From the NCBI GenBank assembly GCA_043798215.1, contig JAZDOX010000075.1:1-55529 (forward strand): a stretch of 55,529 nucleotides of DNA. Reading direction: 5' to 3'. This DNA is from Candidatus Omnitrophota bacterium (GTDB taxonomy: Bacteria; Omnitrophota; Gorgyraeia; Pluralincolimonadales; Pluralincolimonadaceae). Position numbers and translations under genes: made by a program. Under the pieces are notes generated by a model. The model was not told the DNA's origin. It searched no databases and was given only the letters and a program-made list of their open reading frames with translations. Shown piece by piece: positions 1,112 to 55,529 of the stretch; position 1 is the first letter of the stretch; every line of letters starts with the position of its first letter.

Positions 1112-1290
1112 CGCGCTGTAACATAAATTTTATATTGTTCGAGCGAGTCCCGACGTATCATCGGGGCGAGTCGAGAACTATGGATACGGGCTAAAGCAGA
1201 GCTTCTCGACTCATCCGCCTCAGGCGGATTCGCTCGAAGAATAAGCGCTTGCTGTCCCAAGCATTACCCTGAAGCGATGTCATAGTGCAA
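1112..1290 (+). mobile_element. Family A MITE-like element, copy A1 (degenerate right end)
   Basis: TGTAACATAAATTTTATA left end. Core TTCGAGCGA / GAGTCGAGAA / TTCTCGACTC / ATCCGCCTCAGGCGGAT / TCGCTCGAA. The first internal hairpin is the CCCGACGTATC.TCGGGG variant. Confidence 0.85.
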
Positions 1291-1787: not shown

Positions 1788-1975
1788 CTAGCGCATTGTA
1801 ACATAAATTTTATACTGTTCGAGCGAGTCCCGACGTATCGTCGGGCCGAGTCGAGAACTATGGATACAGACAGCAACAGAACTTCTCGACTCATCCGCCT
1901 TAGGCGGATTCGCTCGAAGAATAAGTGTTTGCTTGTCTTCAGAAACTGCCATAAATTAATGTTACAGAGCACTAG
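1788..1975 (+). mobile_element. Family A element, copy A2
   Basis: The TIR is CTAGCGCATTGTAACATAAATT ... AATTAATGTTACAGAGCACTAG. The core is as in A1. A partial extra left end lies at 1751-1780. Confidence 0.9.
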
Positions 1976-3119: not shown

Positions 3120-3260
3120 ATGTAGGGCGTGTTCCCCGAGACTGTGTTGTAATGTAGTTGCTCGATTTATCGAGCACAATATATCTGCCCAATGAATTGG
3201 GCAACTACAATATGTTGACGCAGTTAGCGGAAAAAAGAGATTGCGACATAGTCTGAATGA
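3120..3260. repeat. Partial G-type fragment + B-core double hairpin + diverged arm, in the 5' UTR of the GH5 gene
   Basis: ATGTAGTTGCTCGATTTATCGAGCACAATATATCTGCCCAATGAATTGGGCAACTACAATATGTTGA. The arm GACGCAGTTAGCGGAAAAAAGAGATTGC recurs at 37651-37690. Confidence 0.75.
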
Positions 3261-3319: not shown

Positions 3320-6300
3320 ATGAGAAAATTTTTTTATCTTTTTTGGGTATCAAGTCTGCTTATTATTTCTGTTGCTTATTCCCAGCCTGTTGAAAGATAT
3401 GGCTTTGAGAATGGAACTCAGGGCTGGGTTGCCTCAGATTATCAATTCGGCAGAGCGGTTTCTAATGTAACACAGTCTTCGGATAGAGCTGTTGTCGGCG
3501 CTTATTCCTTAAAGGCTATGGTTGATTTGATAGGCGGGAGTTCCACAAATGCCAGCGGCGAGGCATATGTGGATATGCGAAATAACCCCCCTTTAGGCGT
3601 AATCACTCCAATTAACCTGCAAGGCCAAACACTTACAGCGTATATATATTGTCCAGTAGGCTCAAGAGGGGACGTTACAGCGCCAAATGGAATTCAAATA
3701 TTACTCAAAGATGAAAATTGGAAGAGTCTTTATAGTAAATGGATAAATATAGTTGAGAACTCGTGGATAAAATTAACACTAACTATAAACGACACTTGCG
3801 ATTTCGATTCTACAAAAGTTATTGTGGTTGGTTTCAAGATAGGGGCGGGTTTAGGTTCTTCGGCAAGATATAACGGCCCTATTTACTTGGATACCGTAAG
3901 TTTTGACGTTGGGGGAACGCCTCCTATGCCGTCTGCCGAGAATCAAAGATATGATTTCGAGACGGGAATTCAGGGCTGGGCTGATTCAAATTATACCTAT
4001 GGGCAGGCAGTTGTCTCTGTTGAGCAATCTTCCGAGCGGGCGGCTCTGGGCGCGTCTTGTTTGCGATCGAACGCTGATTTAGCGGGCGGCGATACCCATA
4101 AGTCTTATGGCGAGGCTTATGTGGATATGAGGTATTCTCCTCCTTCAGGGGTAACCGCTCCTTTGAGTTTAAATGGGGTTGAGGTTTCAGCTTGGATATA
4201 TTGCCCTGCCGGATCGCGAGGAGATGGCAATAACCCAAACGGCGTTCAGATATTCGTTAAAGACGAGAACTGGAAGGCTGAGTATTCGAGTTGGACTAGT
4301 ATCTTTGAGAATGTTTGGTTTAAGATTACCTTGACACCATGCTTAAGCGCCCCTCTCAATGGTTCTATGGACGAGGGTTTCGATCCCGCAAGAATAATTA
4401 ACATCGGCGTCAAGATTGGCACAGCTGCAGGCTCAACCGCTCTTTACAAAGGGCCTGTTTATTTTGATGTCCTGTCATTTTCACAGCCAAGCGTGCCGCT
4501 TTCAGACTATACGTATGATTTTGGCAGCGCGGGCGCATTGAATGGAATTCCACGATGGGACGTGGATTCCGGATGGGGGGCTTTAGCGTGGGATAGTGTG
4601 TATTTGTCAGAAGAAGCTTTAACGGCGTCCGCGAAATTTAGTATGACTTCAGATAAGGAAAGAAAAGGATTCGTCAATATTTTTTATGCCCCGCCGATTT
4701 ATTTAACGAACAAAGACAATCATATTATCAGGGCCGAAGTAAAATTTGACCCGCAGCCCGGGCCGCTGGATTTCATAGGAGTTATCTGGGTTTACGATAA
4801 AGAAGGCGAAAGATGGTATCGAAATGATTATAAGAATATAGGCGGCGGCGCCGGATGGAGCGTATTGAGCTTTGATTTAGATGATAATATGGCCTATGAT
4901 CCGGATTTGGGTTTTGGAGAAACGATGCCGTTAGGCCAAATCGTTAAAGTGGGAATTCAATTATATGCCAACGCTGATTATACAGGTAGAGTCTATTTTG
5001 ACAATATTACTATTGGAGGCAGGGAGATAACCTCGAAATATCCCCAAAATAATACAGGACTCGTTGAAAGAAGCGGGACTAATTTTGTTTTGGGCGGCCA
5101 AAAATTTTATTTTGCGGGCGCAAATGCCGAGTATCTCTTTGAGAAATCCGTGCCAATAGAGGAGAAAGTCCTGGATTCGGCTAAGGATATGAATCTGGGG
5201 GTAGTGCGCACCTGGGCGTTTGGAGAAGGCGAGGACGCCAGTTTTCAGCCCATAAGAGGTAAGTTCAATCAAAGCGCTTTTGAGCATTTAGACAGGTTAA
5301 TAGCTTATGCCGGTAAAAAGGGCATAAGGCTTATGTCCCCTCTGGTGGATAATTGGGGCCATTATGGCGGTATGTATAAATATATGGATTGGGCTTTAGC
5401 CGAACATCCCGAGAGTGTTCCTGATTACGATGATAAAGGGAATTTTGTGGATAAGATAAACAAGAATGACGCTTTTCACGATCAGTTTTTCGTAAATCAA
5501 TATTGCAAGCAATGGTATAAGGATTATGCGAGTTACCTCTTGAATAGAACCAACTCTATAACAGGTGTAAGGTATAAAGACGACCCCAACATTTTTGCCT
5601 GGGAAGTGTTTAACGAACCGCGCTGCGGTTCGGATGTTTCAGGTAAAAGGGTTCATGATTGGATAGTCGAGATGAGTAATTTTGTAAAAACAATCGACCC
5701 AAATCATCTGGTCGGCACAGGAGAAGAGGGCGCTTACATAATGGCTAAAGATCAAGCCGATCAGTTTAGCGGTTGGCAGGATTATCCTTATAACTATTGG
5801 ATATACGGCTTAACGCAAGGATCGAGCGGAGTCGATTTCTTAAGCGATCACAAGACTACCGATACCACTGTTTTCTGGCAGGACTATGAATGGGGGGAGA
5901 AAGAAATTATAGGGCCGATTCATTCCGAATTAAGAGAAGGCGCTTTGAATGTGGATTTTTGTTCTTTCAGGGCCTATATCGACGCTTCAGAGTTTAACCT
6001 TTATCGCGTTGATCCGTACGATCAATCGCTTAAATGGATTGAACAGCATATGAACGACGCTTTTAATGTTATCGGAAAGCCGGTGATTATGGAAGAGTTC
6101 GGCATCCATACTGTCGGCTATATTTATGGAGGAGGATTCGGGGAAAGGAAATTTCACAGACGTCCGGCTTACACTGTTTCTGACCGGATGAATATTTTCC
6201 AAAAGTACTACGATTATATTTATGACAACAATATAGCCGGTTCTCTATTTTGGAACTTGGGCTATGATGGAATGAGAGCGGATTTGTTCGACGGCTGCGA

Positions 6301-8167
6301 AACTTTGGCGCATAGTGTTTCCTCGACATGGGCCATAGACTCCAATTCTGACGCGGCGGCAATTTCGCTGTCTGAGATCAATGTTATTCAAGGAGAAAAA
6401 TCTTTCAAACTTGATTACGCTAATCCTTTGGCTGGCAGGGCATTTTATGATTTGCCCAATTTAACGGAGAAATGGGAAGTTACAGCCGCCAATCCTCCAT
6501 CCTCCGGCGCCATTAACAGGGCGAAGTTCACTTTTGATTTATATAATGCCGGAGATGCCAAATATGTTGATTTAGCTGTTTGCGCGGGTCCAAATTTGAC
6601 GTGGCATGAGTCGACTTTGCAGCCGCTTAATACGGGATGGAATAAGGTTACAGTTGATTTATCTTCCGAGACCTGGAAATCAGCGGTTACTGATTGGAGT
6701 TATGCGGGCGACATCGCTGATTTAGACGATGTCAGGAAGATCTCCATAGGCTTGTTTGGGTATTCTGCGCCGGGGTCGGCATATGTGGATAATATCAATA
6801 TATTGGAAGACGACGGTTTTGTTATCTATCCGGGCGACGAGATAACAAATATCATTTCAGCTCATGCGCGGATGATGGCGGATAAATTTGAGGATTTGCC
6901 TGTAGTAGATACTACTCCGCCCGCCATACCCATAGTTACTACTGAAAAGGCGTCTCTTCCTGGAAGCAGGACAGAGTATTCTATTAAAGCTAAGTGGGAA
7001 TCTTTCGATTCAGAATCAGGCGTAGCGCAATATCTATTTGCTATAGGCACATCTAAGGGGTCAAATGATGTTCAGGATTGGAATCTTTGTAAGGCCAATG
7101 TTACCAAAATTACAACAGTAGATTTAGATTTAGCGATATTTTCAGGCAAGACCTATTACTTTACCGTCAAAGCTAAAAATGGCGCAGATCTATGGAGTGA
7201 GCCGGGTTATTCAGAAGGAATAATTTTTGTAGATACGACTCCGCCCCCCGCGGTTAATTGCTCCATCAAGATAAACGACAATGCTCAATATGCCGCCTCT
7301 ACCGTTGCAACTCTAACTTTATCAGCTGCAGATGCGCCGGGTGGCAGCGGTATGGGAACGGGTAGCCAGATGAAGATATCCAACACAAATCCTGCCGACT
7401 GGACCGCCATTACGACAGTAGTTTATGCCACAACCAAGTCTTGGACGCTGACTACAGGAAGCGGCACAAAGACCGTCTATGTCAAATTCAAGGATGCGGC
7501 AGGCAACTGGTCAAATGCCGTATCCGATACTATCATATTGGATACTACCCTACCCGCTGTGCCGGTTGTCACTGATGACGGGACATACACAACAAGCACA
7601 ACCCAGCTGCACGCTTCGTGGAGTTCAAGCGATCCTGAGTCGGGCATAATCGAGTATAAATATGGAATTGGCGCCTCAAAGGGAGCCGCCGATGTGGTAA
7701 GCTGGACAAATACTACCTCAACCAGTGTTACCGGAACAGGTCTGTCTTTGCAATACGGCAAGACCTATTACTTTACAGTTCACGCCAAAAATGGCGCTTT
7801 TGTATGGAACGGCCCCGGTTATTCGGATGGCATAACCATAAACGATATTACTCCCCCTTCAATAAGCCATACTCCTATTGCTTCAGCTCCTAAGAATAAG
7901 CCAGTTACATTTACCGCCACTGTTACGGACTCAACATCAGGAGTAAAAGAGGTAACTCTTTATTGGCGTAAATGGATACGAAGAATATTTTGGTGGGAAT
8001 GGAGCGACCTGCGCCCTTTACTTATGAGCCCGCAAGGGAATAATAAATATAGCGCAATTCTTATGGCTTCTCAAGTTGAGGATAGAAAGATAAAATATTA
8101 CATCACAGCTAAAGATAAGGCGAACAACGCGAGAAGTACGTCAACATATGTTATATCAAGATATTAA
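3320..8167 (+). CDS. 1615-aa secreted multidomain glycoside hydrolase, GH5 catalytic core (mannanase-like) with CBM-like and FN3/Ig-like modules
   Basis: Signal peptide. Two tandem N-terminal modules (ERYGFENGTQGW... / QRYDFETGIQGW...). GH5 signatures VRTWAFGEG, FAWEVFNEPRC (acid/base Glu) and VIMEEFG (nucleophile Glu). Two tandem C-terminal modules (WESFDSESGVAQYLFAIG / WSSSDPESGIIEYKYGIG). RBS aagagg. Confidence 0.85.
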   Translation: MRKFFYLFWVSSLLIISVAYSQPVERYGFENGTQGWVASDYQFGRAVSNVTQSSDRAVVGAYSLKAMVDLIGGSSTNASGEAYVDMRNNPPLGVITPINLQGQTLTAYIYCPVGSRGDVTAPNGIQILLKDENWKSLYSKWINIVENSWIKLTLTINDTCDFDSTKVIVVGFKIGAGLGSSARYNGPIYLDTVSFDVGGTPPMPSAENQRYDFETGIQGWADSNYTYGQAVVSVEQSSERAALGASCLRSNADLAGGDTHKSYGEAYVDMRYSPPSGVTAPLSLNGVEVSAWIYCPAGSRGDGNNPNGVQIFVKDENWKAEYSSWTSIFENVWFKITLTPCLSAPLNGSMDEGFDPARIINIGVKIGTAAGSTALYKGPVYFDVLSFSQPSVPLSDYTYDFGSAGALNGIPRWDVDSGWGALAWDSVYLSEEALTASAKFSMTSDKERKGFVNIFYAPPIYLTNKDNHIIRAEVKFDPQPGPLDFIGVIWVYDKEGERWYRNDYKNIGGGAGWSVLSFDLDDNMAYDPDLGFGETMPLGQIVKVGIQLYANADYTGRVYFDNITIGGREITSKYPQNNTGLVERSGTNFVLGGQKFYFAGANAEYLFEKSVPIEEKVLDSAKDMNLGVVRTWAFGEGEDASFQPIRGKFNQSAFEHLDRLIAYAGKKGIRLMSPLVDNWGHYGGMYKYMDWALAEHPESVPDYDDKGNFVDKINKNDAFHDQFFVNQYCKQWYKDYASYLLNRTNSITGVRYKDDPNIFAWEVFNEPRCGSDVSGKRVHDWIVEMSNFVKTIDPNHLVGTGEEGAYIMAKDQADQFSGWQDYPYNYWIYGLTQGSSGVDFLSDHKTTDTTVFWQDYEWGEKEIIGPIHSELREGALNVDFCSFRAYIDASEFNLYRVDPYDQSLKWIEQHMNDAFNVIGKPVIMEEFGIHTVGYIYGGGFGERKFHRRPAYTVSDRMNIFQKYYDYIYDNNIAGSLFWNLGYDGMRADLFDGCETLAHSVSSTWAIDSNSDAAAISLSEINVIQGEKSFKLDYANPLAGRAFYDLPNLTEKWEVTAANPPSSGAINRAKFTFDLYNAGDAKYVDLAVCAGPNLTWHESTLQPLNTGWNKVTVDLSSETWKSAVTDWSYAGDIADLDDVRKISIGLFGYSAPGSAYVDNINILEDDGFVIYPGDEITNIISAHARMMADKFEDLPVVDTTPPAIPIVTTEKASLPGSRTEYSIKAKWESFDSESGVAQYLFAIGTSKGSNDVQDWNLCKANVTKITTVDLDLAIFSGKTYYFTVKAKNGADLWSEPGYSEGIIFVDTTPPPAVNCSIKINDNAQYAASTVATLTLSAADAPGGSGMGTGSQMKISNTNPADWTAITTVVYATTKSWTLTTGSGTKTVYVKFKDAAGNWSNAVSDTIILDTTLPAVPVVTDDGTYTTSTTQLHASWSSSDPESGIIEYKYGIGASKGAADVVSWTNTTSTSVTGTGLSLQYGKTYYFTVHAKNGAFVWNGPGYSDGITINDITPPSISHTPIASAPKNKPVTFTATVTDSTSGVKEVTLYWRKWIRRIFWWEWSDLRPLLMSPQGNNKYSAILMASQVEDRKIKYYITAKDKANNARSTSTYVISRY

Positions 8168-8308
8168 GAAGGGACACACCTTAGGTGTCGAAGCAGACGG
8201 TTTTATATGGGCGCAAACGTATTTGGAGAATATTTTGGCGGGAGTGGAGCTACTCGTGTGTTTTGTCTATAACTTCGCAGGGAAGCAATATTTACAAAAC
8301 AACCCCCC

Positions 8309-8511
8309 ACTACATTGTAGTATAAATTTTATACTGTTCGAGCGAGGCCATTGGCCGAGTCGAGAACTATGGATATGCCTGCCTGTGCGTGGCACGCAGA
8401 CAGGGACAGGCAGCAGAACTTCTCGACTCATCCGCCTCAGGCGGATTCGCTCGAAGAATAAGCGCTTGCTGTCTCCAAGGACTACCATGAATTAATGTTA
8501 CAATGCGCTAC
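8309..8511 (+). mobile_element. Family A element, copy A3 (extra palindromic insert in the variable loop)
   Basis: Same TIRs and core, with the GGCCATTGGCC hairpin variant. The loop carries GCCTGCCTGTGCGTGGCACGCAGACAGGGACAGGCAGC. Confidence 0.9.
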
Positions 8512-12735: not shown

Positions 12736-13036
12736 ACTAATACGAACGCATTAAGTAAAGTGTCATTGCCCGGCTTGCAGGCTGGGCCATAACCCTTTTT
12801 TTTGACTAAATAGGTCAACATATTGTAGCTGCCCAATTTATTGGGCCGATATGTTGTGCTCGATAAATCGAGCAACTACATTATGACCCAGTCTCTTGAC
12901 CGGGCAATCCAGACACCAAGTAACATATCTTTATAGCGTGACTGGATTCCCCGCATTCGCGGAGAATGACAGCATGTATTTGATTTCATAGAAACTTATG
13001 AGATTGCCTATAGTCGATTAATGCGTTTGTATTAGT
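12736..13036. repeat. Four-level nested element (L > D > E > B core)
   Basis: L TIR ACTAATACGAACGCATTAA (12736-12754) / TTAATGCGTTTGTATTAGT (13018-13036). D is 12761-12971, E is 12782-12891, and the B hairpins are 12831-12846 and 12858-12873. Confidence 0.85.
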
Positions 13037-14223: not shown

Positions 14224-14429
14224 TGTCATTTCCCGATTTACAGACTGGGATACAATGTTGTGCTCGATTTATTGAGTACAACATATCGGCCCAATATCAT
14301 GCTTGAGGTAGACCCGCCTCTTGCGCCAGAGGCGCATCAAGCTGAGGCGGGAATTGGGCAACTACATTATGTTGATCTATTTAGTCAAGAAAAAGGGCTA
14401 TGTCCCAGTCTCCAAGTTGGGCAATGACA
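14224..14429. repeat. Nested D/E/K palindromic block
   Basis: TGTCATTTCCCGA ... GGGCAATGACA arms, a B-core, and an insert GCTTGAGGTAGACCCGCCTCTTGCGCCAGAGGCGCATCAAGCTGAGGCGGGAA. Confidence 0.8.
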
Positions 14430-18598: not shown

Positions 18599-18898
18599 TG
18601 TCATCGTCTGGCTTGACCAGACGATCCAGACATGTTAATCCGTGACTGGATTACCCGAACAACAGACTGTGACATAACCCTTTTTCTTGACTAAATAGAT
18701 CAACATATTGTAGTGCATTGTAACATAAATTTTATACTGTTTGAGCGAGGCCATTGGCCGAATCGAGAACTATGGATATGCCTGCCTGTCGGCAGACAGT
18801 CCTATCAAGCTGAGGCGGGAATCGAGCAACTACATTATGACCCAGTTTGCAAGTCGCCTGCCTGCCGAAGCTTTTTGGCGTAGGCAGGGGTAATGACA
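18599..18898. repeat. Nested block: D element > E element > truncated family A copy
   Basis: TGTCATCGTCTGG...CCAGACGATCCAGACA, E arm CATAACCCTTTTTCTTGACTAAATAGATCAACATATTGTAG, then A4, then ...CAACTACATTATGACCCAG ... GGGGTAATGACA. Confidence 0.8.
18711..18802 (+). mobile_element. Family A element, copy A4 (left half only)
   Basis: TAGTGCATTGTAACATAAATTTTATACTGTTTGAGCGAGGCCATTGGCCGAATCGAGAACTATGGATATGCCTGCCTGTCGGCAGACAG, then a junction into a different repeat. Confidence 0.8.
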
Positions 18899-18940
18899 AT
18901 TTTATGGTCGTACAGTTACGATTATAACAGAGAGGCTGCC

Positions 18941-20395
18941 ATGAATATCGAGCTTAAACAGGTGAACGAATACATATGGGAAATTCCAAGATCCGGAGAG
19001 ATGCTTGTGCCCGGCAGAATTTATGCCGACGCGGAATTGATAAAACACTTGACCGATGATGTGGAAAAGGGGAAAGAATGGAATGCGTTGGTTCAGGTAA
19101 AAAATGTGGCCTCTCTTCCTGGCATTCAAAAAGCGTCGCTTGCTATGGCGGACATACACCCCGGTTATGGATTCGCGATAGGCGCTATCGGCGCTTTTGA
19201 CATTGAGACAGGCGTTATTTCGGTGGCAGGCGTGGGGTTTGACTGTAACTGCGGAGTCAGGACCTTGCGCACACAGCTTACCCGCGATGATTTAAAAGGC
19301 AAGGAAGAACAGCTTGCCAATGAATTATTCAGAGTTATTCCTGCCGGTATCGGCTCAGAGGGGCGGATTGAGCTTTCCGTCAATGAGATAGACGAGGTTC
19401 TTATCAAAGGCGCTAAGTTTTCCGTCGAGCATGGTTACGGTTGGCAGGAAGACCTGACGTTTATGGAAGAGGAAGGCTGTGTTAAAGGCGCCGATCCCAA
19501 AATGGTTAGTTATGAAGCGAAAAAAAGGGGATTTAATCAGGTAGGGACATTAGGCTCTGGCAATCATTATTTGGAAGTGCAGTATGTCTCTGAAATTTAT
19601 GACGACGAAGCCGCGCAAATTTATGGGTTGTTTCCCAACCAAGTTTTAGTCTCGATACATTGCGGAAGCCGCGCCTTAGGGCATCAAATAGGCGCGGATT
19701 ACCTTAAAATTTTGGAAGCCGCCTCTATAAAATATAATATCCCGATAAGGGAAAGAGAACTTGTTTGCGCGCCGTTTAATAGCGAGGAAGGGAAGCGTTA
19801 TTTCAAGGCGATAAACTGCGGCATTAACGCCGCTTTTGCCAACAGGCAGGTATTGACGCATTTGACCAGAAAAGCCTTTAGTTCGGCGATTGGCGTCGAT
19901 GAAAAAACTATTCGCACTTTGTATGATATAGGCCATAATACGGCTAAATTGGAAGAACACGCCGTTGATGGACAGGTAAAGACTTTGATAGTTCACAGGA
20001 AAGGCGCCACTCGCGCTTTCGGCCCGGGCAGGCCCGAGATACCGGATAGGTATAAAAAGATAGGCCAGCCTGTTTTGGTCGGAGGCACAATGGGCACTTG
20101 CTCATATATTTTGCATGGCACCGAGAAGGGGATGAGGGAAGTCTTTGGCACGGCGGTTCATGGCGCCGGAAGAGTTTCTTCGCGCCAGCAGGCAAAACGC
20201 AGGTGGCGCGGCTCAGAGTTGATAAAAGAGCTTAAACAAAAAGGGATAATAATAAAAGGTCACAGCCTTGCTGGTGTGGCCGAAGAAGCTCCCGGCGCTT
20301 ATAAGAATGTTACACAAGTCGTTAATGTCGTTCATAATGCCGGAATTGCTCTTAAAGTGGCTATGTCAAAGCCTATAATTTCAGTTAAGGGATAA
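18941..20395 (+). CDS. rtcB: RNA-splicing ligase RtcB
   Basis: Motifs GSGNHYLEVQ, HCGSRALGHQ, HNTA, HGAGR. I prefer ATG 18941 (RBS gagagg, MNIELKQV...) to the track start 18893, which lies inside a repeat. Confidence 0.9.
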   Translation: MNIELKQVNEYIWEIPRSGEMLVPGRIYADAELIKHLTDDVEKGKEWNALVQVKNVASLPGIQKASLAMADIHPGYGFAIGAIGAFDIETGVISVAGVGFDCNCGVRTLRTQLTRDDLKGKEEQLANELFRVIPAGIGSEGRIELSVNEIDEVLIKGAKFSVEHGYGWQEDLTFMEEEGCVKGADPKMVSYEAKKRGFNQVGTLGSGNHYLEVQYVSEIYDDEAAQIYGLFPNQVLVSIHCGSRALGHQIGADYLKILEAASIKYNIPIRERELVCAPFNSEEGKRYFKAINCGINAAFANRQVLTHLTRKAFSSAIGVDEKTIRTLYDIGHNTAKLEEHAVDGQVKTLIVHRKGATRAFGPGRPEIPDRYKKIGQPVLVGGTMGTCSYILHGTEKGMREVFGTAVHGAGRVSSRQQAKRRWRGSELIKELKQKGIIIKGHSLAGVAEEAPGAYKNVTQVVNVVHNAGIALKVAMSKPIISVKG

Positions 20396-23861: not shown

Positions 23862-24711
23862 ATTGAGGTTATCTCTTTCCGCCTCAGATTTTAACTTGGA
23901 ACACACCTTAGAATGTGGCCAAGCTTTTCGATGGGAAAAATCAGACAACGGTTACCAAGGCGTGATTGGCAGAGCGCTTTTAAAGATTAACTATGACGGC
24001 GCCCGCTTACAGGTTGAGTCAAGTTCACCCCTAAGCAAAGAAGCTCTCACAGAGTATTTTGGCTTGAATGAGAATATGCCGCGCATACTAAAAGAAATAG
24101 ACCTCGATAGCCATATCCATAAAGCGATTCTTAAATTTCATGGTTTACGCGTCTTAAATCAGGATCATTGGGAATGCCTCGCTTCTTATATTCTTTCTTC
24201 CTATAATAATATAGCCCGTATTAAGATAATGATAGAAAAACTCTCGAGAGCTTTTGGCGAAAGGCTGACTCTTGGCTGTATTGAACGGCGCTCTTTTCCT
24301 TCCATTGAAAAGATTGCCGCCGTTAATCTGTCGGCGCTTAAAAAATTAGGCTTAGGTTTCAGGGCCTCGTATTTGAAAAAAACTGCCGGGGACCTTTTAG
24401 CCAAAAGACTTGATTTAGACAGCCTTGAGAACTTAAGCTATAATGAGGCGAAGACGAAACTCACACGTCTTAAAGGAGTGGGAGAAAAAGTCGCCGATTG
24501 CGTTTTATTGTTTTCTTTTAAGAAATATGAGGCTTTTCCGGTAGATGTCTGGATAAAGAGAGCGGTGGAACGGTTTTATTTCAATGGCAGGCCTGTCAGC
24601 TCTAAAAGAGCGGCGGAATTCGCGCGTGAATACTTTGGCCGTTATGCCGGTTACGCGCAGGAATATCTTTATCATTATATGAGATGCGGATATAGGCAGG
24701 CTGGGCCATAA
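23848..24711 (+). CDS. ogg: 8-oxoguanine DNA glycosylase / AP lyase (Ogg1-type, HhH-GPD)
   Basis: ECGQAFRW near the N-terminus. HhH-GPD motif [15 protein letters not shown] followed by FPVDVW. Overlaps dcd by 14 nt. The last codons and the stop lie inside a repeat element. Confidence 0.8.
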
Positions 24712-24845
24712 CCCTTTTTCTTGACTAAATAGATCAACATATTGTAGTTGCCCAATTCCCGCCGGAGGCGGGTCTGCCTCAGGCATGATATTGGGCCGAT
24801 ATGTTGCGCTCGATAAATCGAGCAACTACATTATGACCCAGTCTC
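24696..24845. repeat. E element with K insert, overlapping the 3' end of ogg
   Basis: CTGGGCCATAACCC ... ATTATGACCCAG. The hairpin GCCCAAT..ATTGGGC is split by TCCCGCCGGAGGCGGGTCTGCCTCAGGCATGAT. Confidence 0.85.
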
Positions 24846-24856
24846 ATAGAGGCGGA

Positions 24857-24995
24857 TAGTGCATTGTAAAGTTAATTCTTGACAGTTTGTCATGCCCGGA
24901 TGCTTTAATCGGGCATCCAGACACGCCCATTTCTGGATTCCCGCTAAAAGATTGCGGGAATGACAACTGGTGGAAACTAATTTTACAATGTACTA
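24857..24995 (+). mobile_element. Family F element, copy F1 (carries a D-type double hairpin in its centre)
   Basis: TAGTGCATTGTAAAGTTAATTCTTGACAG ... CTGGTGGAAACTAATTTTACAATGTACTA. The centre is TGTCATGCCCGG..CGGGCATCCAGACA..TCTGGATTCCCGC..GCGGGAATGACA. Confidence 0.85.
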
Positions 24996-32249: not shown

Positions 32250-32337
32250 TGTCATTGCCCGATTTATTCGGGCAATCCAGACATGAAATAACACCTTATA
32301 ACGTGACTGGATTCCCCGATCAAGTCGGGGAATGACA
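32250..32337. repeat. Solo D element (double hairpin)
   Basis: TGTCATTGCCCGATTTATTCGGGCAATCCAGACA ... GACTGGATTCCCCGATCAAGTCGGGGAATGACA. Confidence 0.85.
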
Positions 32338-32415
32338 AATGCTAATTTAGATAGCAATGGCGCGATAGTTGATCGTAATCTGCTATCAGCCAGAATACGT
32401 CATAGGAGGTAAAAT

Positions 32416-35137: not shown

Positions 35138-35720
35138 TCCAGACATGGTTTTATGAATTTTTCTTGCATGGGCTTAATGAAAGCTCTGTAGGGGACGGGC
35201 CTGCCCGTCCCGTTAATGAAATGTAGGGCGCGTTCCCTGAACAGGCCGCGAACGCAACAATGTATGTCATCCCCCGGCTTGACAGGGGGATCCAGACACG
35301 ATTTTATAAATTTTTCTTGCTTCGGCTTGTGCCCACAAGGAATCGCTCGAAAATCCCCGGCGAGGATTTTCTCGCTCCACTTTAGCCCTCGTTCTTCCGC
35401 AAAGGGTAAATAGCGGGCGGAATCCCTGCCCGCTCGGACTAAAGAGGTTCCTTGCGGACACAAGCCTATGCAATTGGTTTAATGTAGTTGCCCGATTTAT
35501 CGGGCTAATTACGTTTGTTAGGCCGATGAATCGGCAGACTACAACGTGTTTTTTGACGGAAGATATTTATGCAGCGCGGTTGGTATAATAGTAAACAAAT
35601 GTCGTAGGGGCGAGGTCGCCTCGCCCGAATGAAAATATAAGTAATAAAATAATCGGGCGCGCCTGCCTGTCGGCAGACAGGGAAACCGCGCCCCTACATA
35701 TCATACTGTAGAGGCCAACC
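35138..35720. repeat. Repeat-only island (D halves, G-type TGTAGGGG..CCCCTACA hairpins, B-core variant, CCTGTCGGCAGACAGG module)
   Basis: Direct repeat ATCCAGACA.G.TTTTAT.AATTTTTCTTGC at 35141 and 35291. GTAGGGGCGAGGTCGCCTCGCCC ... GCGCCCCTACA. There is no credible ORF. Confidence 0.75.
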
Positions 35721-37256: not shown

Positions 37257-37275
37257 GTTGTCAGACTGCGTTGCA

Positions 37276-37329
37276 ATGTAGTTGCTCGATTTATCGAGCG
37301 CAACATATCGGCCCAATAAATTGGGTAAC
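37276..37329. repeat. B-core double hairpin abutting F2
   Basis: ATGTAGTTGCTCGATTTATCGAGCGCAACATATCGGCCCAATAAATTGGGTAACTAC. Confidence 0.8.
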
Positions 37330-37468
37330 TACTGCATTGTAAAGTTAGTTCTTGGCAGTTTGTCATGCCCGGATGCTTTAATCGGGCATCCAGACACGCC
37401 CATTTCTGGATTCCCGCTAAAAGATTGCGGGAATGACAACTGGTGGAAACTAATTTTACAATGTACTA
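37330..37468 (+). mobile_element. Family F element, copy F2
   Basis: Near-identical to F1. Confidence 0.9.
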
Positions 37469-37642
37469 CTGCTCTGTAACATTAATTCATGGTAGTCCCT
37501 GGAGACAGCAAACACTTATTCTTCGAGCGAATCCGCCTGAGGCGGATGAGTCGAGAAGTTCTGTTGCTGTCCATATCTGTGGTTCTCGACTCGGCCAATG
37601 GCCTCGCTCGAACAGTATAAAATTTATGTTACAATGCACTAC
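37466..37642 (-). mobile_element. Family A element, copy A5
   Basis: Reverse complement of the family A consensus, full length, abutting element F2. Confidence 0.9.
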
Positions 37643-37786
37643 AATATTTTGACGCAGTTAGCGGAAGAAAGAGATTGCATACAGTCTCTGTGTGGCGGAC
37701 ATGCCGTAGTTCTTAAGAGACGGGCTTATTAGCCGCTTCAAAATTTATTATTAAAGATTTCCCGAATATAGTATAATATACCCAAT

Positions 37787-43049: not shown

Positions 43050-43226
43050 GTAGTGCATTGTAACATAAATTTTATACTGTTCGAGCGAGGCCATTGGCCG
43101 AGTCGAGAACTATGGATACGGGCAGCAACAGAACTTCTCGACTCATCCGCCTCAGGCGGATTCGCTCGAAGAATAAGTGTTTACTGTCTCCAAGGACTAC
43201 CACGAATTAATGTTACAGAGCAGTAG
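43050..43226 (+). mobile_element. Family A element, copy A6 (reference copy) between mlaF and mlaD
   Basis: Full TIRs. Core 43080-43170 forms a four-way junction with no linker nucleotides (see findings). Confidence 0.9.
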
Positions 43227-43903: not shown

Positions 43904-43926
43904 AAAAAGGGATACTGTAAAATAGT

Positions 43927-44074
43927 CTGTTGACTTTCAGTCCGCCAATGCGTTGTGGCGGGTGTCAGTTTTGCTATCATGTTGTAGCCGCAAAGCGTCA
44001 GCTTTGCTAATTGTTTTGCGCGCATTTTGCAGAGCTTCGCTCTGCAGCTACACAATAAATTCAAAAGTCAGCAG
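43927..44074. repeat. Palindromic element with TIR CTGTTGACTTT ... AAAGTCAGCAG
   Basis: The inverted termini and an internal imperfect palindrome (GTAGCCGCAAAGCG / CGCTCTGCAGCTAC) are readable. Single copy in the window. Confidence 0.6.
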
Positions 44075-44081
44075 AACTCTT

Positions 44082-44256
44082 AGTAGCGCTCTGTAACATT
44101 AATTCGTGGTAGTCCTCGGAGACAGCAAACACTTATTCTTCGAGCAAATCCGCCTGAGGCGGATGAGTCGAGAAGTTCTGTTGCTGCCCGTATCCATAGT
44201 TCTCGACTCGGCCAATGGCCTCGCTCGAACAGTATAAAATTTATGTTACAATAGTA
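44082..44256 (-). mobile_element. Family A element, copy A7
   Basis: Reverse complement of the consensus. Ends 22 nt before the FecR-domain gene start. Confidence 0.9.
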
Positions 44257-45228: not shown

Positions 45229-45402
45229 GTATATTGCAACATAAATTTTATACTGTTCGAGCGAGGCCATTGGCCGAGTCGAGAACTATGGATATGGACA
45301 GCAGTAGAACTTCTCGACTCATCCGCCTCAGGCGGATTTGCTCGAAGAATAAGTGTTTGCTGTTTTCAAGGACTGTCATGAATTAATGTTACAGGGCATT
45401 AG
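45229..45402 (+). mobile_element. Family A element, copy A8
   Basis: ATTGCAACATAAATTTTATACTG ... AATTAATGTTACAGGGCATTAG, with an intact core. Confidence 0.9.
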
Positions 45403-55389: not shown

Positions 55390-55529
55390 CTACTGCATTG
55401 TAAAATTAGTTTTCACTAATTGTCATTCCCGCAATCTTTTAGCGGGAATCCAGAAATGGGCGTGTCTGGATGCCCGATTAAAACATTCGGGCATGACAAA
55501 CTGCCAAGAACTAACTTTACAATGCACTA
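55390..55529 (-). mobile_element. Family F element, copy F3 (ends at the window edge)
   Basis: Reverse complement of F1/F2 with a few substitutions. Confidence 0.85.

Follow-up and report, generated by a model that had tools for sequence, protein, structure and literature searches.

REPs are lineage-specific, high-copy sequences, which classically feature the tetranucleotide GTAG at the 5' end, and typically flank the RAYT (Y1_Tnp) gene. Rickettsia palindromic elements (RPEs) measure about 100-150 bp and are not known outside Rickettsia. The units that form REPINs are found also as single units (PMC3116915). Prokaryotic MITEs are recognized by TIRs, direct repeats, intergenic location, stable stem-loops and nesting; in bacteria their target-site duplications (TSDs) are short and centred on TA, and their cargo includes IHF sites, promoters and RNase III sites (PMC10969869). 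Members of the IS481 family feature TGT... ends and a 6-bp NCTAGN duplication (PMC2516522).

The repeats described here, denominated family A, have been identified in one whole metagenomic contig of 55.5 kb (the window), the AccA protein of which shares 80-85% identity with proteins encoded by Candidatus Omnitrophota MAGs. All the copies analysed come from this single contig. Genes are almost all located on the + strand, and those surrounding copy A6 encode GTP cyclohydrolase I, DUF212, a YkuD transpeptidase, AccA, MlaE, an ABC ATPase (MlaF-like), MlaD, a FecR-like protein and a CHASE2-SpoIIE phosphatase. Family A members have spread into short intergenic spacers, including three successive ones in the mlaE-mlaF-mlaD-fecR-like cluster, and have inserted also into other repeats. 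Copies lying within operons are expected to be co-transcribed with the operon genes.

Organization of family A

A blastn search of the window with the 177-nt sequence retrieved exactly the eight places listed in the original prediction. Seven correspond to full copies (80-98% identity, E values from 5e-43 to 2e-79), the remaining one to a half copy (18710-18778, 97% identical). As proposed, copies are intergenic and found in both orientations: all lie between real genes, and two of the eight are antisense to the + strand genes. The only ORFs overlapping family A copies span 1722-2030 and 8148-8495; neither has a Pfam match, and a protein search carried out with translations of the A6 element in all reading frames gave no match. 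The element had been described as about 177 bp long and bounded by TIRs. TIRs are found, and the length has been revised, as the outer 4 nt at each side (43050-43053 and 43223-43226, GTAG) are TSD and not TIR. The element proper, anchored on conserved ends, spans 43054-43222 and measures 169 bp. Family A members range in size from 169 to 197 bp, and have no coding capacity. The TIRs are 18 bp long and imperfect, and 15 of 18 positions of the left one agree with the reverse complement of 43205-43222 (counted by eye). Coordinates of all the features are collected in Table 1.

Table 1. Family A copies, parts of copy A6, family B copies, and position of the unit relative to stable-RNA genes in other loci (L numbers).
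Feature	Position	Strand	Remarks
Left TSD of A6, GTAG	43050..43053	+	Matching 4-mer at 43223-43226; 4-mers vary among copies, agree within each
Left TIR TGCATTGTAACATAAATT (TG... terminus)	43054..43071	+	Common to family B
Unit a, TTC GAGCGA [GGCCATTGGCC] GAGTCGA GAA	43080..43109	-	Regex scan; gives the 5' strands of P1 and P3 and the P2 hairpin
P3 loop, spacer between units, 25 nt	43110..43134	+	Variable; 12.6% differences per cell
Unit b, TTC TCGACTC [ATCCGCCTCAGGCGGAT] TCGCTC GAA	43135..43170	+	Cross-phylum 30-nt module; gives the 3' strands of P3 and P1 and the P4 hairpin
Right spacer	43171..43204	+	Variable; 9.3% differences per cell
Right TIR AATTAATGTTACAGAGCA (...CA terminus)	43205..43222	+	
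Right TSD of A6, GTAG	43223..43226	+	
A1	1112..1289	+	Oldest, ~80% identity; longer hairpin in place of P2; left flank TTAG, right end degenerate
A2	1792..1971	+	180 bp, long P2 hairpin; TSD CTAG/CTAG
A3	8311..8507	+	197 bp; extra palindrome in P3 loop; ~3 nt lost at left tip; TSD CTAC/CTAC
A4, left half only	18714..18778	+	Left flank GTAG; ends within P3 loop at the start of another repeat module
A5	37470..37638	-	CTAC at both sides on + strand; in tandem with a family B element at a single CTAC
A7	44087..44255	-	2-nt loss at left tip; + strand flanks GTAG / GTAT (by eye)
A8	45230..45398	+	TSD TTAG/TTAG
Family B copy	37333..37465	+	TSD CTAC/CTAC
Family B, other copies	24860-24992, 55394-55526		
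Unit immediately 3' of tRNA CCA	L002, L010, L011, L016		
Unit ~30 nt beyond tmRNA gene	L006		
Unit ~200 nt upstream of 23S rRNA gene	L012		
Unit ~200 nt upstream of 16S rRNA gene	L026		

At minimum free energy, either strand folds as a four-way junction enclosed by a TIR stem. Compared to shuffled sequences, the fold has z scores of -6.35 (+) and -5.21 (-) as RNA, and of -7.78 as DNA, and no shuffle was equal. The four-way junction is a real feature, far above chance. All the helices and hairpins reported earlier are in place, with zero unpaired bases between helices. In A6, P1 results from the pairing of TTCGAGCGA (43080-43088) to TCGCTCGAA (43162-43170), and P3 from the pairing of GAGTCGAGAA (43100-43109) to TTCTCGACTC (43135-43144). 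P2 is the hairpin GGCCATTGGCC (43089-43099), P4 the hairpin ATCCGCCTCAGGCGGAT (43145-43161).

The regex scan revealed that the core is made by two inverted copies of one unit, organized as stem-TCGACTC-hairpin-TCGCTC-stem, and separated by a 25-nt spacer. When read on the - strand, unit a has the sequence TTC TCGACTC GGCCAATGGCC TCGCTC GAA. The TCGACTC and TCGCTC strands of each unit pair with their complements in the other unit to form P3 and P1, and the hairpins proper to each unit are P2 and P4. An inverted pair of hairpin-bearing units automatically forms a four-way junction free of linkers, which is therefore a geometric consequence of the inverted pair, and not a separate invention.

Sequence variation is unevenly distributed. 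The P1, P3 and P4 stems feature two differences in 364 cells (0.5%), versus 75 in 809 cells (9.3%) elsewhere, TIRs included (Fisher p = 1e-10, a value to be taken as indicative only, because copies share ancestry and cell statistics overstate independence). Differences amount to 8% in TIRs, 12.6% in the P3 loop and 9.3% in the right spacer. Within family A the core unit is about 17-fold better conserved than the TIRs. In A1 and A2, the oldest copies, P2 has been exchanged for a longer hairpin; the TCGACTC/TCGCTC strands and the P4 stem are intact. The loop had been reported to be variable and to accept extra palindromes, and A3 has gained a 28-nt palindrome in its P3 loop. The conservation of helices noticed earlier is one of sequence, the P1, P3 and P4 stems being nearly invariant, with zero compensatory changes. 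Helices do not vary, and hence do not show compensatory changes: a sequence constraint is established, a structure is not proven. Both P1 substitutions are C-to-T, and keep G-U pairs on the + strand of the element, a pattern which is at most a weak hint of a role at the RNA level. The unit is under strong sequence constraint within family A.

Other palindromic modules are assembled into intergenic mosaics at 2674-2850, 3139-3255, 12777-12930, 14261-14412, 18662-18840, 24696-24850, 35475-35505, 37263-37332 and 43904-44081. Modules include TGTAGTTGCTCGATTTATCGAGCAACTACA and TGTAGTTGCCCAATAAATTGGGCAACTACA (bounded by GTAG...CTAC), CCCGCCAGAGGCGGG, and a shared arm, TTGACTAAATAGATCAACATATTGTAG. 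The mosaics may have a REP-like origin, and their GTAG/CTAC ends are insertion targets for families A and B. The gene encoding the RtcB RNA ligase (18893-20395) is located directly 3' of the mosaic holding the truncated A4, probably by coincidence. Direct repeats (3557-3609/4109-4161 and 7145-7245/7757-7857) are found within the 1615-aa ORF 3320-8167, which has a mannanase GBD-like domain, and are probably repeated protein domains, not mobile DNA. The short repeat GATCCCCCGATCAAGTCGGGG(G)A... is found twice, at 473-511 and 32310-32348, one copy lying within the 354-aa ORF 47-1111, which has no Pfam match.

Termini, duplications and empty sites

Direct 4-mers, read in the orientation of the element, flank A2 (CTAG/CTAG), A5 and A6 (GTAG/GTAG in both) and A8 (TTAG/TTAG). 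Flanks of A3 are CTAC/CTAC if the loss of about 3 nt at the left tip is allowed (by eye), CCAC/CTAC in the script output. The outer positions of the flanking 4-mer both match in at least six of the seven informative copies (chance p ~4e-7). Being directly repeated, yet different between copies, the flanking 4-mers are TSDs. Exceptions are A1 and A7, the flanks of which are imperfect, and the family B copy at 24860-24992, flanked by inverted 4-mers (ATAG/CTAT). The automatic flank call of A7 (TGAT/CTAC) is offset by the 2-nt loss. A duplication limited to TA, of the IS630/Tc1-mariner type (target NTAN/CTAG), was also considered and discarded: the outer bases are duplicated too in six of the seven informative copies, and the tips are not complementary under a TA model.

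A paralogous empty site has been identified in the same contig. The host repeat at 3139-3244 (+) is uninterrupted and hosts a single CTAC; its filled twin is split into 37263-37332 and 37638-37678, and the whole 37263-37678 tract reads CTAC[family B]CTAC[A5]CTAC. A comparison was possible also with the perfectly syntenic Omnitrophota MAG GCA_030695925.1 (L036). Here the MlaF-MlaD spacer measures 18 nt, versus 189 nt in the window, where it hosts A6. The L036 spacers separating MlaD from FecR and FecR from the next gene measure 10 and 3 nt, respectively, and in the window these places host A7 and A8. The spacer between the GTP cyclohydrolase I and DUF212 genes is 53 nt long, and is replaced in the window by a 530-nt mosaic including A5. 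Altogether, spacers of 3-53 nt in the close relative correspond to spacers of 160-530 nt in the window genome, and the repeat families of the window are absent from L036 in the locus compared. Mobility of family A as a TIR-bounded element generating a 4-bp duplication is shown by these data.

The same termini (TGCATTGTAA...) bound the members of a second family, denominated family B. This is a 133-bp MITE which has an unrelated, multi-hairpin core (GTCAT / GCCCG...CGGGC / ATCCAGA...TCTGGAT / TCCCGC...GCGGGA / ATGAC). CTAC duplications have been found in two of the three family B copies; the one at 55394-55526 shows CTAC/CTA, followed by the contig end. The contig stops inside this third copy, which suggests that repeats broke the assembly. 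As families A and B share the termini, and not the core, the termini are likely the transposase sites, and the junction is cargo.

This bears on the hypothesis, put forward in the original prediction, that the recognition structure of the element is a cruciform resembling a Holliday junction, in which case the element would be moved by a resolvase, or by a recombinase specific for the structure. Both strands form a perfect 4H junction devoid of linkers, and the same junction architecture is found in unrelated phyla (see below), as the hypothesis would have it. However, family B has identical termini and TSDs of the same kind around a different core, the junction follows automatically from two inverted hairpin-bearing units, and no recombinase gene was found among the window ORFs scanned or in 30 other loci. 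Moreover, staggered TSDs of 4 bp denote DDE-type transposition rather than the resolution of junctions. Recognition through a four-way junction is thus extremely improbable.

The inverted pair of palindromic units may alternatively be seen as a REPIN-like REP doublet, moved as ssDNA by a RAYT (Y1/HUH), to which the TIRs would be incidental. Inverted pairs of the unit are found also in other phyla, units a and b make up an inverted doublet of a short palindromic unit, several copies have GTAG at their flanks, and GTAG...CTAC palindromes abound in the contig. GTAG, however, varies (TTAG, CTAG, CTAC) and is directly duplicated at both sides, and hence is TSD rather than part of a REP. HUH Y1 transposition is not known to make TSDs. 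In addition, about 80 nt of sequence unrelated to the units, and the 18-bp TIRs, are part of what moves, family B has the same termini and moves without units, and no Y1_Tnp match was found among the about 30 window ORFs scanned with Pfam. The REPIN-like origin of family A is accordingly quite improbable.

TIRs, variable 4-bp TSDs, empty sites, small size and intergenic nesting qualify family A as a prokaryotic MITE. Its members are short (prokaryotic MITEs measure about 50-500 bp) and non-coding, bounded by TIRs, flanked by copy-specific TSDs, and missing at empty sites; TSDs and empty sites back the MITE interpretation advanced in the original prediction. Family A is very probably a non-autonomous DNA transposon of 169 bp, the core of which is a cargo made by an inverted unit pair. 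As such it is ordinary biology, of use mainly because it documents that transposition has been active, and the genome has expanded, in an uncultured lineage of Omnitrophota. A point against a purely selfish MITE is the interior, conserved about 17-fold better than the TIRs of the same element.

No transposase or recombinase was matched among the about 30 ORFs scanned with Pfam in this 55-kb portion of the genome. The search for a transposase or resolvase gene carrying the family A TIRs similarly found none among the window ORFs scanned, and a TIR-proximal pattern scan of GTDB genomes gave 0 matches, so that the collection lacks the source genome and its close relatives. A look-up of the exact sequence of the neighbouring MlaD protein gave no record either. 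Plausibly, the 18-bp TIRs (5'-TGCATTGTAACATAAATT ... AATTAATGTTACAGAGCA-3') are bound by a transposase encoded elsewhere in the genome. This trans-acting enzyme, putatively of the DDE type, would cut NTAG-like sites (GTAG, TTAG, CTAG, CTAC) with a 4-nt stagger, and repair of the stagger would duplicate 4 bp. A candidate autonomous element would be bounded by TGCATTGTAA...TTACAATGCA, with 4-bp NTAG duplications. The MITE would have captured and amplified the unit pair. The unit itself may have a sequence-specific function, being either bound by a factor or required for its own spread. Any single strand, be it RNA, or DNA in the course of replication or transposition, folds as a perfect four-way junction. 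In A6, which lies in the mla operon, and in other co-transcribed copies, the core would form a very stable RNA junction, which could affect RNA processing or stability, as has been described for Correia and ERIC sequences (PMC10969869).

The unit in distant phyla

The junction core is not private to the contig. A 22-base pattern derived from unit b was searched in metagenome contigs and in GTDB species-representative genomes, and was found in 5 metagenome contigs and 30 GTDB stretches, all of the latter from MAGs. The 22 distinct canonical instances share an invariant 30-nt core, TCGACTC-ATCCGCC-N(2-5)-GGCGGAT-TCGCTC, in which the loop of the hairpin is 2-5 nt long. The TC preceding and the CTC following the searched pattern, which are outside the query, are still invariant or nearly so. 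Hosts belong to at least eight phyla, and include Pseudomonadota, Margulisiibacteriota, Peribacteria, Moraniibacteriota, Acidobacteriota, Ignavibacteriota, WOR-3 and Planctomycetota, in addition to the Omnitrophota contig. The closing stem, 4-6 bp long, differs among sites and covaries (5/5 pairs with both-side changes). Both-side cells are 20, compared to 7 +/- 2 in shuffles; none of 500 shuffles was as high, and slid controls collapse.

The varying length of the loop favours a hairpin over a double-stranded operator, and a dsDNA operator has been discarded, as a variable loop of 2-5 nt speaks against it. A sequencing or assembly artefact was similarly dismissed, as loops vary, closing stems fit locally, and projects and technologies are unrelated. 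The sequence features of K-turns, T-loops, hammerheads, integron attC sites, Helitron-like ends and dif/Xer sites do not fit either (by eye only). No Rfam match to the unit was found in 24 loci, at gathering or permissive thresholds. Blastn searches of phage and plasmid collections and a pattern scan of viral contigs gave no match. Full-text literature searches with the unit sequence or the encoded peptides retrieved nothing relevant, and no paper quoting the sequence was found. Across 30 loci, no protein gene recurs beside the unit, recombinase genes included.

Units are located next to stable-RNA genes (Table 1), which they adjoin in both orientations. In two sequences from the metagenome Ga0265296 (L005:1950-2084 and L003:1487-1581) the unit fills the P3 hairpin loop of a TPP riboswitch, and its closing stem is the own helix of the host RNA. 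These riboswitches score 53.7 and 54.2 bits; the gathering score is 54.3 bits, and standard annotation would thus miss them. In the Ignavibacteriota MAG CAVSHI010000003.1 (L017:~4600-4735, - strand) an inverted unit pair is inserted in frame inside a long ORF encoding an N6-adenine DNA methyltransferase. Compared to PDB 8cxz, the pair contributes about 46 additional residues, placed between the motifs YYTP and ACGSG. Inverted pairs from this locus and from a Planctomycetota locus (L024) fold as four-way junctions.

Three tRNA-associated units are found on one contig of the metagenome Ga0265338 (L002:1380-2640). Here tRNA-Val is separated from a 14-nt duplicate of its own 3' end (CTCATCACCCACCA) by two small ORFs resembling a toxin-antitoxin pair, and the duplicate is followed by the unit; the arrangement looks like an islet integrated at the tRNA 3' end. 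The organization CCAT[unit]ATGG-YAAR-CCAT is common to several units linked to tRNAs. In many non-tRNA units (L007, L015, L017, L020, L028, L033) the closing stem is immediately followed by TGAC(A/G)A, as in TCGCTCAGGATGACAA; the ATGACAA found after non-tRNA units also closes the family B core in the window. The L017 methyltransferase ORF features a second short repeat-like stretch, EEPSEGSKPSEG, further along. Outside the window, family A has its longest match (36 nt) in the WOR-3 bacterium SM23_42 (L001:6850-6975, corresponding also to L004 and L018). The sequence following the match, GTTCGAGCCAAGTCGAGAACTA..., is similar to units a and b of family A in permuted order; the locus may be a related composite, hosted by a lineage of similar sediment origin.

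The location of units within or close to RNA genes must be weighed together with the second identity originally envisaged, that of a dispersed cloverleaf RNA. Family A would be a structured RNA, either an ncRNA gene or a cis-acting module, and its mobility as DNA would be secondary. The fold is very stable, helix sequences are strongly constrained, P1 substitutions are only C-to-T and keep G-U on the + strand, copies within operons must be co-transcribed, and elsewhere the unit is inside functional RNAs (P3 loop of TPP riboswitches, tRNA trailers). Contrary to this hypothesis, elements occur in both orientations, two copies of eight being antisense to + strand genes, and beside stable-RNA genes elsewhere the unit is also found in both orientations. 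TSDs and empty sites denote recent insertion, and elements are absent in the syntenic relative. Neither promoter nor terminator is consistent in the element, compensatory changes are zero, and what is seen is a sequence constraint only. The Rfam check gave 0 hits in the window at gathering thresholds, and at permissive thresholds the best score was that of IhtA (E = 0.61, 16.8 bits versus a gathering score of 76). An ARAGORN search for tRNA-like structures in the element found nothing. It is therefore improbable that family A is primarily an RNA.

The 30-nt module is identical across distant phyla, sits beside stable-RNA genes, in a riboswitch helix and in a gene, and is invariant in a decaying transposon. 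A tentative explanation, on which we have considerable doubts, is that the 30-nt core is an undescribed, sequence-constrained hairpin module moving horizontally among at least eight phyla, and that family A is a MITE that captured one pair of such modules and amplified it. Capture of the pair would explain why the interior is better conserved than the ends. The module would be either a new class of minimal mobile palindromic elements or a site bound by some broadly conserved host factor. If the module were self-mobile, or the handle of a conserved protein, it would represent a small, widespread component of bacterial genomes, and the MITE-borne copies would be a natural experimental entry point.

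Relationships to known systems

The original prediction did not recognise family A as a described family, and all the searches carried out (Rfam, phage, plasmid, literature) agree with this view. Family A is a new MITE family, and the cross-phylum hairpin module it carries is undescribed and has no Rfam family. The Correia (NEMIS) sequences of Neisseria, and ERIC, RUP, Nezha and QMITE sequences, are likewise about 100-200 bp in size, non-coding, intergenic, often co-transcribed and nested, and feature TIRs and stem-loops. In contrast to Correia and other MITEs, with which it has no sequence similarity, family A is hosted by Omnitrophota and flanked by 4-bp NTAG rather than TA duplications. Its interior folds not as one long hairpin, but as a four-way junction formed by a pair of cross-phylum units, and exceeds the TIRs in conservation.

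TG...CA tips and a TA-centred target recall IS481/IS3-type elements, which have DDE transposases resembling retroviral integrases, but the family A duplication is 4 bp, not 6; the assignment of family A to this type is a guess. Unlike REPINs, family A features TIRs and TSDs, no RAYT was found in the scanned window ORFs, and the unit is low-copy and identical across phyla. RPEs are alike in being small palindromes found in frame in genes and at RNA genes, as the L017 unit pair. In contrast to RPEs, the unit consists of 30 nt and a variable stem, at least eight phyla host it, and in the window family A is never inside a gene. Finally, the E. coli BIMEs and the pneumococcal BOX elements are similarly intergenic arrays of a few palindromic modules, the order and orientation of which vary. 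BIME and BOX modules are lineage-specific, whereas at least one of the window modules is found verbatim across phyla, and is carried in a transposon equipped with TIRs and TSDs.
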